Assembly (NCBI GenBank): GCA_049974095.1 | Contig: JBMFJD010000001.1 | Coordinates: forward strand, 30,001 to 62,000 | Source: Nanopusillaceae archaeon | GTDB taxonomy: Archaea > Nanobdellota > Nanobdellia > Nanobdellales > Nanobdellaceae | Direction: 5' to 3' | Length of the DNA stretch: 32,000 nucleotides | In this document: piece after piece, positions 27,326-28,399 of the stretch | How positions within the stretch are numbered: position 1 is the first letter of the stretch | Layout of the letters: the number at the start of each line of letters is the position of its first letter | Made by a program: the position numbers and the translations under genes | The notes under the pieces: generated by a model | What the model was told of the DNA's origin: nothing | Databases searched by the model: none | The model's input: the letters and a program-made list of their open reading frames with translations, nothing else

Positions 27326-27400
27326 TGCCCCCACCGGGATTTGAACCCGGGTCTCGGGGATGAGGACCCCGTATCCTAGACCTGACTAGACGATGGGGGC
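27326..27400 (-). tRNA. tRNA-Glu (anticodon CUC), 75 nt, CCA not encoded
   Basis: Minus strand: GCCCCCA-TC-GTCT-AGTCAGGTCTA-GGAT-A-CGGGG-TCCTCAT-CCCCG-AGAC-CCGGG-TTCAAAT-CCCGG-TGGGGGC-A. The cloverleaf folds fully, has a 4-nt variable loop, and the anticodon loop is UCCUCAU. Confidence 0.85.
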
Positions 27401-27684
27401 TATGGATTATTTAATATATATTCTGAAGAATTTGTTATAACAATTATGTTTGTACCATTATAATAGCAAACCATATTTTCTTGTAAACAAATATTATAAT
27501 ATGTTTGATTTATTATTGATGCATTCTGTGGATAAAATAATAATTTAACATAAAAATCTTCTGCAATATATTTACCTATATTTGGCTGATAATAGAAATT
27601 ATTCTGCAAATTAGATAAATAATAGAATGTTATAAATAGAATTAAAATTAAATATAAAAGAATAAATTGAGATCTCATTTCCAA
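27400..27684 (-). CDS. Pilin-like small secreted/anchored glycoprotein, paralog 3 (likely start MRSQF at 27678)
   Basis: MRS-QFILLYLILILFITF hydrophobic N-terminus (class III signal-peptide-like R-S/Q). N-x-S/T sequons NAS, NQT, NGT, NSS. Shares the C-terminal motif VCYYNGTNIIVI with paralog 1. Confidence 0.55.
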   Translation of the reverse strand: MEMRSQFILLYLILILFITFYYLSNLQNNFYYQPNIGKYIAEDFYVKLLFYPQNASIINQTYYNICLQENMVCYYNGTNIIVITNSSEYILNNP

Positions 27685-28064
27685 TAAACATAAACATAAT
27701 ATATTGAGCCATTTATTATATAAAAGTCTTTAATTCCTTCCGTTACATTTGTTATATTAATATTATAAAATGCAGCTTGATTATTAATTTCAACATAATA
27801 ATATGGTAATATATTTGTAACAATTTCATATAATGATTGATTTAACTGACTTAAATTTGTTAGATTTAAATAATTTATGGATATTAAAGAAGATAATAAA
27901 TCTTCTTTTTCATATCCTCTTAAATACATTATACTATAATATTTTGCTGTTAATAAAAAATATAATACAATTATTACTACTATTATTTCAAAAAATAGAG
28001 ATATATTAAATGATCTCATGATATTAAAACTTCTACTAAATATAAAGAGCCATCGTAATAACAA
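27675..28064 (-). CDS. Pilin-like small secreted/anchored glycoprotein, paralog 2 (likely start MRSFN at 28019)
   Basis: The MRSFNISLFFEIIVVIIVLYFLL N-terminus sits in an ATGA overlap with the upstream stop. Many sequons (NIS, NLT, NLS, NQS, NIT, NVT, NGS). C-terminal motif YIINGSIYYVYV. Confidence 0.55.
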   Translation of the reverse strand: MLLRWLFIFSRSFNIMRSFNISLFFEIIVVIIVLYFLLTAKYYSIMYLRGYEKEDLLSSLISINYLNLTNLSQLNQSLYEIVTNILPYYYVEINNQAAFYNINITNVTEGIKDFYIINGSIYYVYVYWK

Positions 28065-28399
28065 ACTCTTCTAAATTCTATATAATTGTTTGTTATATTT
28101 TGACCAAAAGAAAATACAGTACCATTACTTAAATTTTCATAAATTATCTCATATAGTCTATTAATTCCTAAATTATCTAATATAGAAGAATTAAAATCTT
28201 CAGACGTTAAATTACATATAGGATTAGAATATTCCTCTGTTATTTTTTTAATAATTATCCTTCCATCGATAAATTTGTTAAAAAAATCTGAATATTTGAA
28301 ATTAACATTATAAATATTTGATACTTCCTCCATTAATAATAAAGTTATAAAAAAAATTATAACTACTATCAATAATAGTTCAAAAAATCTATCCAGCAT
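28016..28399 (-). CDS. Pilin-like small secreted/anchored glycoprotein, paralog 1
   Basis: MLDRFFELLLIVVIIFFITLLL N-terminus. Sequons NLT, NSS, NLS, NGT, NIT. C-terminal motif VCYYDGSLYLVEV. Confidence 0.55.
   Translation of the reverse strand: MLDRFFELLLIVVIIFFITLLLMEEVSNIYNVNFKYSDFFNKFIDGRIIIKKITEEYSNPICNLTSEDFNSSILDNLGINRLYEIIYENLSNGTVFSFGQNITNNYIEFRRVCYYDGSLYLVEVLIS

Follow-up and report, generated by a model that had tools for sequence, protein, structure and literature searches.

Three small consecutive genes in a 32,000-nt stretch of DNA from a Nanopusillaceae archaeon make up a previously uncharacterised, order-specific family within the broad group of class III/pilin-like archaeal surface proteins. 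The stretch, called the window below, spans positions 30,001 to 62,000 of contig JBMFJD010000001.1 (G000:C1:30001-62000); G000 is a 0.76-Mb metagenome-assembled genome that is 93% complete. A preliminary description, made from the window sequence, had drawn attention to the three genes (here g1, g2 and g3) as pilin-like. That observation is confirmed by our analysis, and the pilin interpretation is partly supported. The reading we prefer, tentatively and at somewhat less than an even chance, is that the trio encodes a co-translated, glycosylated, pilin-like complex of the cell surface or membrane, in which g3 would be a class III substrate and g1 and g2 its membrane-anchored partners. The locus comprises the following features.

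28016-28399, minus strand: g1, 127 aa, ATG start, bitopic protein
27675-28019, minus strand: g2, 114 aa from MRS, bitopic protein
27400-27678, minus strand: g3, 92 aa from MRS, class III-type N-terminus
28016-28019, minus strand: ATGA stop/start overlap of g1 and g2, translational coupling
27675-27678, minus strand: ATGA stop/start overlap of g2 and g3, translational coupling
28400-28441, no strand assigned: intergenic region of 42 bp between the divergent genes g1 and rpl22

The three minus-strand ORFs (~127, ~114 and ~92 aa) have the coordinates and N-terminal helices first described for them, and the C-terminal motifs quoted then are found in the sequences of all three proteins. Both ATGA overlaps, at 28019-28016 and 27678-27675, are seen in the window, and both junctions are kept in 14/14 named relatives. 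The two junctions also overlap in a metagenome contig from another lineage, as they do in every relative locus having mapped neighbouring ORFs. Pairwise dN/dS values of 0.11-0.49 across g1, g2 and g3 indicate that the genes are protein-coding and under purifying selection. The MRS/MKS starts that give a 114-aa g2 and a 92-aa g3 are, independently, the choice of public gene callers. Upstream TTG starts (28064 for g2, 27684 for g3) were rejected, since the extensions are the C-termini of g1 and g2 read in another frame; in the case of g3, a start at 27684 would yield MEMRSQ and leave the mature protein unchanged if the leader is cut. We likewise rejected a 105-aa gene call for g1 that starts at M23, given the conservation of residues 1-22 and an intergenic region of just 42 bp. 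TATA-like tracts lie at about -36 to -27 from the g1 ATG and -32 to -23 from the rpl22 ATG, a sequence pattern that suggests leaderless divergent promoters between the two genes.

Relatives named by homology were Nanoarchaeota archaeon YN1 (the closest), Candidatus (Ca.) Nanopusillus acidilobi, Ca. Nanobsidianus stetteri, Nanobdella aerobiophila and Ca. Nanoclepta minutus; in their light, the source organism is a thermophilic nanoarchaeal ectosymbiont belonging to the Nanopusillaceae. An orthologue of each trio gene is present in 17 of the 18 family genomes, with Nanopusillus, Nanobsidianus, Nanobdella, Nanoclepta and YN1 among them. The sole exception, G017, is missing the whole rpl22 region too, so the apparent absence of the trio there is an assembly gap. 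In the sister family (G019), all three genes can be read by eye, adjoining rpl22. We found no trio in Nanoarchaeum equitans (98% complete), and nothing similar adjoining its rpl22. When a g2 profile was run against 1.84 billion cluster representatives, it retrieved 13 clusters, all of 105-123 aa, which argues that the family is narrow and specific to the order. The metagenome copy, a single locus, was found with a narrower g2 alignment. Conservation in relatives, which the preliminary description had put forward as a check, thus extends over the family, the sister family and one metagenome contig. In N. acidilobi, the orthologues Nps_03350, Nps_03355 and Nps_03360 each carry the annotation 'Uncharacterized protein', a single transmembrane domain and no arCOG assignment (Wurch et al. 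2016; PMC4935971).

The constant neighbours of the trio are rpl22, rps3 and apgM, transcribed divergently from it in all genomes with a mapped locus, and UppS and tRNA-Glu adjoin it in part of the Nanopusillus clade only. The trio had been described as flanked by lipid-carrier glycosylation genes. This holds on one side, where UppS is adjacent and PAP2 and GT2-GtrA are 3-5 kb off; the other side is occupied by rpl22, rps3 and apgM. A functional tie to the lipid-carrier genes was rejected, given that UppS adjacency is lost outside the clade.

All three proteins were said to be rich in N-x-S/T sequons, and the enrichment is evident relative to both the proteome and shuffled sequences. Sequon densities are 3.9 (g1), 6.1 (g2) and 4.3 (g3) per 100 aa; the proteome has a median of 0.48 and reaches 3.2 at its 95th percentile, and the trio falls between the 97th and 99.7th percentiles. 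These densities exceed those of composition-matched shuffles (P = 0.013 for g1, <0.0002 for g2, which has seven sequons, and 0.021 for g3). Several of the sites are invariant across genera, namely N57-x-T59 and N74-G-T76 in g3, C62-N63-L-T in g1 and N103-G in g2. Also conserved are an invariant E7 and the Cys62/Cys113 pair of g1, and the invariant Q4 and Cys64/Cys71 pair that accompany the two N-x-T sequons of g3; in g2, the intramembrane Glu E11 and an ED..SL..NY motif are invariant along with N103-G. The Cys pairs are either invariant or lost jointly (g2 in Nanopusillus; g1 in G019). Taken with the basic residue before the helix, the sequons and Cys pairs fit an N-in/C-out topology with a disulfide-stabilised, glycosylated ectodomain. 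A PF02516 search of the genome returned no AglB, and one ORF is a candidate.

G000:C7:44601-48047: candidate AglB, 1148 aa, with WWDYG and 16.2 bits on PF21436 (a weak match to the STT3/PglB/AglB core)

On these sequence features, the ORF is probably a very divergent, oversized AglB missed by PF02516. Wheat germ agglutinin binds N. acidilobi cells (PMC4935971).

Class III proteins include the type IV pilins and archaellins processed by FlaK, PibD or EppA; they carry a FlaFind-type motif, and members of the Epd/EppA class have Gln at +1. A class III signal had been proposed for each member of the trio, and our comparisons uphold it for g3 and not for g1, which has no such motif; g2 carries the motif in some lineages only. 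The g3 N-terminus reads M-[KR]-[S/G/A]-Q-[F/Y] in 24/24 aligned sequences, and MKAQF in the metagenome copy. Across four genera plus the metagenome lineage, position -2 is K or R only, position -1 is S, G or A only, and Q at +1 is invariant. Archaellins of the order follow the same rule, starting M..[KR]-[G/A/S/T]↓Q (arrow, putative cut). Nanopusillus and Nanoclepta-type members of the g2 family start M[KR]S-[F/N]; what is invariant in g2 is instead an Asn and, six residues on within the helix, a Glu. In g1, the start is [KR]-x-hydrophobic-Glu, where x can be F, E, S, P, A, Y or T. At the -1 position of a prepilin, bulky residues and Pro are unexpected. The [KR]/Glu start of g1 has the look of an ion pair within the helix rather than of a site for cleavage.

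The g3 pattern recurs elsewhere in the genome. Of 74 ORFs that begin [KR]-x-hydrophobic helix, 20 have Gln at +1, a 10.4-fold enrichment, and Ser, Gly and Asn are over-represented at -1. The 20 ORFs of the M-[KR]-x-Q set include both archaellins and an ArlF-like protein. An acidic residue at +4 to +8, as seen in g2, occurs in 8/39 ORFs of the [KR]-[GASN] class versus 1/35 of the rest. Two side observations concern substrate range. In the 20 ORFs with the motif M-[KR]-[N/S/G/A]-Q-hydrophobic, Asn occupies -1 in nine, mostly in a cluster on contig 2 (e.g. C2:45645-54183), and Asn would be unusual at this position of a prepilin peptidase substrate. An archaellin paralogue starts MRS↓ESGIG in G017 and its counterpart MRRG↓QVGVG in G014; the former resembles the start of g4 (MKS↓ESAAGIG), a g3 paralogue described below. 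Judging from these starts, there may be a second class of substrates, distinguished by a Glu at +1.

A search for a prepilin peptidase had been suggested as a check, and the genome has a FlaK/PibD-type candidate with both catalytic Asp residues.

G000:C10:13529-14509: A24 (FlaK/PibD-type) peptidase candidate, 326 aa, with D22, AIGD80 and a C-terminal Arc_PepC-like domain

Neither D22 nor AIGD80 varies among 11 orthologues, and the layout is the two-domain one of FlaK. PF01478 is matched by 8/11 of the orthologues (best E 3.9e-10) and PF06819 by 6/11; the G000 copy itself falls under the Pfam cut-off (19-23 bits versus 26.5). With a profile of the orthologues, the sole PDB match is FlaK 3S0X (E 0.21, with ASVQD aligned). 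The profile was needed, as phmmer with the candidate alone did not find FlaK. The spacing of D22 and D80 fits that of the catalytic Asp residues in PibD (D23/D80) and FlaK (D18/D79). The peptidase and the trio share their distribution (Nanopusillaceae and G019), and no credible A24 copy was found in N. equitans, the single contrasting genome on which this co-distribution rests. The published N. acidilobi table lists no such peptidase (PMC4935971).

Whether the three genes form one paralogous family, as first described, was assessed with hhalign, which gives moderate support for g2 and g3 and weak support for g1. The g2-g3 comparison has a probability of 34% (E 4e-4) in one alignment set and 59% (E 9.2e-5) in the other, and the better alignment extends beyond the membrane helix into the extracellular helices. 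For g1-g2, the two sets give probabilities of 39% (E 3e-4) and 2%, and for g1-g3 the value is 3%. Pairwise BLASTP E values range from 0.013 to 0.43 over all trio pairs. We conclude that g2 and g3 are probably paralogues, while the kinship of g1 is unproven. A further paralogue of g3 is encoded elsewhere in the genome.

G000:C4:29775-30071: g4, g3 paralogue, 98 aa, starting MKS↓ESAAGIG and containing INQT..NCYYNSTNIIC; hhalign probability 77.5%, E 1.9e-5

This gene is divergent from ftsZ in four genomes, and its spread is that of the trio (Nanopusillaceae and G019, not N. equitans).

AlphaFold2 (AF2) models were made for g1 and g3, and their predicted topologies differ. In the g1 model (pLDDT 89.6), a helix at 2-56 is followed by a short helix and then four strands, whereas the g3 model (pLDDT 88.3) has a membrane helix at 2-24, a helical hairpin at 34-66 and then three strands. 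The common C-terminal motif C-Y-Y-N-G-S/T is modelled as a β-hairpin with an Asn-Gly turn, formed by strands 3/4 in g1 and 1/2 in g3. The order of elements in the g1 model (a ~55-residue helix, a disulfide loop and a four-stranded meander) recalls bacterial type IV pilins, which we regard as a lead. The structural comparison suggested in the preliminary description gave no pilin, archaellin or ArlF/G structure among the Foldseek matches listed for either model, and no significant neighbour in the PDB. Nearly all Foldseek matches of g1 are to uS3, and rps3 stands two genes from g1. Kinship between g1 and uS3 was nonetheless rejected, as hhalign against the uS3 of the window gave a probability of 0.07%; the likeness is a generic two-layer α/β resemblance. 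Two further matches, one of g1 to DNAPKcs_CC3 (17.5 bits) and one to T7 'ocr' in 13/21 g2 members (best E 2.2e-4; PDB Ocr E 0.63), were put down to the composition of a helical stretch that is acidic and rich in N and Y.

Encoded in the genome are four strong type IV filament ATPases, a fifth that is more distant, and at least seven T2SSF platform-domain matches. The nearest ATPase and platform genes are ~17 kb from the trio, with rRNA genes between. This set (7278-11020) had been described as a FlaI-like ATPase and platform 17 kb away, of which the distance and the platform hold, but the ATPase is a paralogue and not FlaI. Encoded at 9527-11020, it scores 363.9 bits on the FlaI model (cut-off 550) and adjoins two separate T2SSF genes, which points to a pilus-type machine and not an archaellum motor. 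The true ArlI scores 667 bits and is on contig 3 (ORF around G000:C3:49543-50103). Type IV filament and pilin genes are reported to be scattered across Nanobdellati genomes (PMC13705601), so the missing linkage of the trio to pilus genes counts for less than it otherwise would. Cognate pilins for some of the nanoarchaeal ATPases have not been identified (PMC4858521, PMC13705601).

Our preferred reading of these data can be set out as a mechanism. The genes g1-g2-g3 would form a lineage-specific operon of thermophilic ectosymbiotic nanoarchaea (Nanopusillaceae and the sister family), transcribed without a leader from a promoter back-to-back with that of rpl22. Termination-reinitiation at the two ATGA overlaps would then yield three products in roughly equal amounts. 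Each product would have one N-terminal helix in N-in/C-out orientation and expose a disulfide-stabilised, N-glycosylated α+β domain of 65-100 aa outside the cell. The FlaK/PibD-type aspartyl peptidase would remove M-R-S from g3, so that the mature protein begins with Gln, as inferred for the organism's archaellins; g1 and g2, each with a conserved Glu where its membrane helix begins, would probably remain uncut or be cut atypically. Assembled, the trio would be a heteromeric unit, similar to a set of minor pilins or a pseudopilus, that primes, anchors or caps a filament, and it would serve one of the several pilus machines scattered in the genome. A bolder version, which we consider unlikely, is that the trio is the missing pilin/pseudopilus set of an 'orphan' machine, a 1:1:1 non-Ig tip or base complex used for host contact, with g1 as its bacterial-pilin-like member.

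A number of results weigh against a pilin-like complex. Equimolar coupling is ill-suited to a major pilin, and none of the three proteins was detected in the shallow N. acidilobi proteome (PMC4935971). The trio never adjoins an ATPase or platform gene and is always beside ribosomal protein genes, suggesting housekeeping co-expression. No small -1 residue is present in g1, and about half of the 13 g2 clusters, as well as G019, have a start of MNP..., MNS... or MVIL... with no basic residue. In Foldseek searches of the PDB, no pilin is among the 50 best matches of g1, of which the first, the uS3 C-terminal domain, has E 0.07; the best E for g3 is 1.5, and its globular part (two helices and three strands) is unlike that of Ig-like archaeal pilins. 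PDB profile searches of g1, g2 and g3 returned nothing under E 0.4, and Pfam and NCBIfam scans of the trio and all alignment members returned nothing meaningful. A reading nearly as likely as ours, though also short of even, is that the trio are ordinary uncleaved signal-anchor (type II) envelope glycoproteins, which would form a surface complex particular to the lineage and independent of type IV filaments. Its role could be, for instance, to organise the S-layer or the envelope or to take part in host contact, and the MRS-Q of g3 would then be a shared targeting or topology signal in place of a cleavage site. It accords with g1 and g3 folds that match no pilin, with a g1 and much of a g2 family that have no class III motif, and with neighbours (rpl22, rps3 and apgM) that are never type IV filament genes; the g3 paralogue g4, too, adjoins ftsZ and not pilus genes. 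Similar starts are, moreover, shared by ArlF/ArlG-like proteins, which are thought to stay membrane-anchored. What a mere anchor leaves unexplained is the archaellin pattern of g3, i.e. the invariance of Q4 and the restriction of -1 to S, G or A. The co-distribution of trio and peptidase, neither of them found in the one contrasting genome, that of N. equitans, also speaks for the pilin-like complex over this alternative.

Two other explanations fare less well. Accessory membrane subunits of a housekeeping machine, either for export/insertion or belonging to the large divergent AglB, might be co-regulated with ribosomal genes. The head-to-head arrangement with rpl22-rps3 is kept across the order, coupled translation suggests equal amounts of product, UppS is adjacent in the clade of the window, and the AglB candidate has an atypical length of 1148 aa. 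Still, we find this improbable: the proteins have no similarity to known accessory subunits, the adjacency of UppS does not extend beyond the clade, and N. equitans, which has the same housekeeping needs, has no detected trio. The heavy sequon load and the disulfides point, in addition, to exposed surface domains. The other explanation, that the trio encodes divergent ArlF/ArlG-type stator or anchor proteins of the archaellum, follows the preliminary suggestion of a FlaF/FlaG role. The trio has the N-terminal membrane helix, archaellin-like start and small extracellular domain of ArlF/ArlG, and the MRS-FNISLFFEIIV of g2 resembles the ArlF-like MKS-QFGTIIVEIIL. In N. equitans, the trio, archaellin and a credible A24 peptidase are all not found. 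However, candidate stator genes are present elsewhere, and a FlaF/FlaG role for the trio is therefore unnecessary.

G000:C1:69091-70010, 7 kb beyond the window: two adjacent ArlF/ArlG-like candidates

The first of these (C1:69091-69570) scores 52.7 and 41 bits on the ArlF and ArlG models and 38.7 bits on PF01917; the second was assigned by its adjacency and MRS start. By comparison, g1-g3 match neither stator model, nor any archaellin-family model, in NCBIfam and Pfam. The predicted folds of g1 and g3 are α+β, as opposed to a β-sandwich, and no ArlF/G chain is among the Foldseek matches listed. The stator explanation is thus largely refuted, and we consider it very unlikely indeed.

The trio can be set beside several known systems, archaeal class III proteins among them. 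Likenesses to these proteins include the short leader of g3 with its basic -2, small -1 and Gln at +1, the hydrophobic helix of ~20 residues that follows, the small size and predicted glycosylation of the protein, the presence in the genome of an A24 peptidase candidate and several ATPase/platform sets, and the scattering of pilin genes reported for Nanobdellati. Unlike these proteins, the trio has no homology to any pilin arCOG or Pfam family and no pilus gene nearby, g1 and part of the g2 family have no motif, and in place of an Ig-like sandwich g3 is modelled with a helical hairpin plus three-stranded sheet. A second comparison is with bacterial type IV pilins and the minor pseudopilins of the type II secretion system (T2SS; e.g. 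the GspI-J-K tip complex). The g1 model, with its ~55-residue helix, loop, four-stranded antiparallel sheet and disulfide, has a similar plan, the Glu near the helix start of g1 and g2 recalls the conserved Glu5, and the small, contiguous, coupled genes suggest a stoichiometric complex like that of the minor pseudopilins. The likeness is at the level of secondary structure, as Foldseek gives no pilin for g1, and the Glu is placed differently: bacterial pilins have it at +5 after a Gly site, whereas in g1 it is at +2 counted from the basic residue and in g2 it comes six residues after a conserved Asn. The Sulfolobus BasABC proteins are three small class III proteins for which a pseudopilus-like structure, and not a long fibre, has been proposed, and which depend on a type IV filament ATPase and platform (PMC3047682). 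Compared by description, the nanoarchaeal trio is similar in being a set of small proteins that may form a pseudopilus-like unit. It differs in that basABC sits with basEF, whereas the trio is unlinked to an ATPase and has a clear signal in g3 only.

Nanopusillaceae are among the few cultivated DPANN ectosymbionts, and the trio offers a candidate for host contact in nanoarchaea that can be put to the test. Several type IV filament machines are kept in genomes of 0.6-0.8 Mb, some without identified pilins (PMC4858521, PMC13705601). The newly recognised peptidase and the ~20 proteins with the proteome-wide M-[KR]-x-Q motif are new candidates for testing as well. Confirmation of the folds would widen the structural range of proteins with class III signals. 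Were the trio an ordinary envelope anchor, it would still be a new clade-defining family, of modest general interest.

Downstream of g3, the locus continues into a tRNA gene.

27326-27400, minus strand: tRNA-Glu(CUC), called by ARAGORN and Rfam; its 3' end abuts the UppS stop codon

Both programs agree with the earlier statement that the G of the g3 TAG stop (27400) is nucleotide +1 of the tRNA. N. acidilobi and two further genomes show this 1-nt overlap too. In Nanobdella aerobiophila (L046 2212-2243), g3 and tRNA-Glu are separated by a 32-nt spacer with a TATA-like tract at about -31 to -22, and no tRNA was found adjoining g3 in YN1 and other genera. The tRNA-Glu of the window has no TATA-like element at -30 to -22; by contrast, tRNA-Leu has TTTATAAA at -28 to -21. 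Upstream of tRNA-Glu, an A/T run at -22 to -6 is too near to serve as a promoter, and a TTATAA at -40 to -35 could give a short leader. Another possibility raised by this arrangement is that tRNA-Glu is cut from the operon transcript by RNase P, removing the last base of the g3 stop codon; punctuation of transcripts by tRNAs is known from mitochondria. Loss of the spacer in the Nanopusillus clade suggests progressive compaction, in which the tRNA's own promoter may have been lost, and the sharing of a stop codon with a tRNA bears on transcription and RNA processing in compact genomes. The anticodon loop of tRNA-Glu(CUC) reads T-C-C-T-C-A-T, with C at position 33, where U is near-universal.

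Elsewhere in the window, G+C content is ~22% in protein-coding DNA and ~55-61% in the rRNA-gene stretches, which contain separate 16S and 23S genes. An archaeal RNase P RNA was also detected (15789-16023, minus strand). A 109-aa plus-strand ORF (15733-16062), which is probably not a real gene, overlaps this RNA almost fully.

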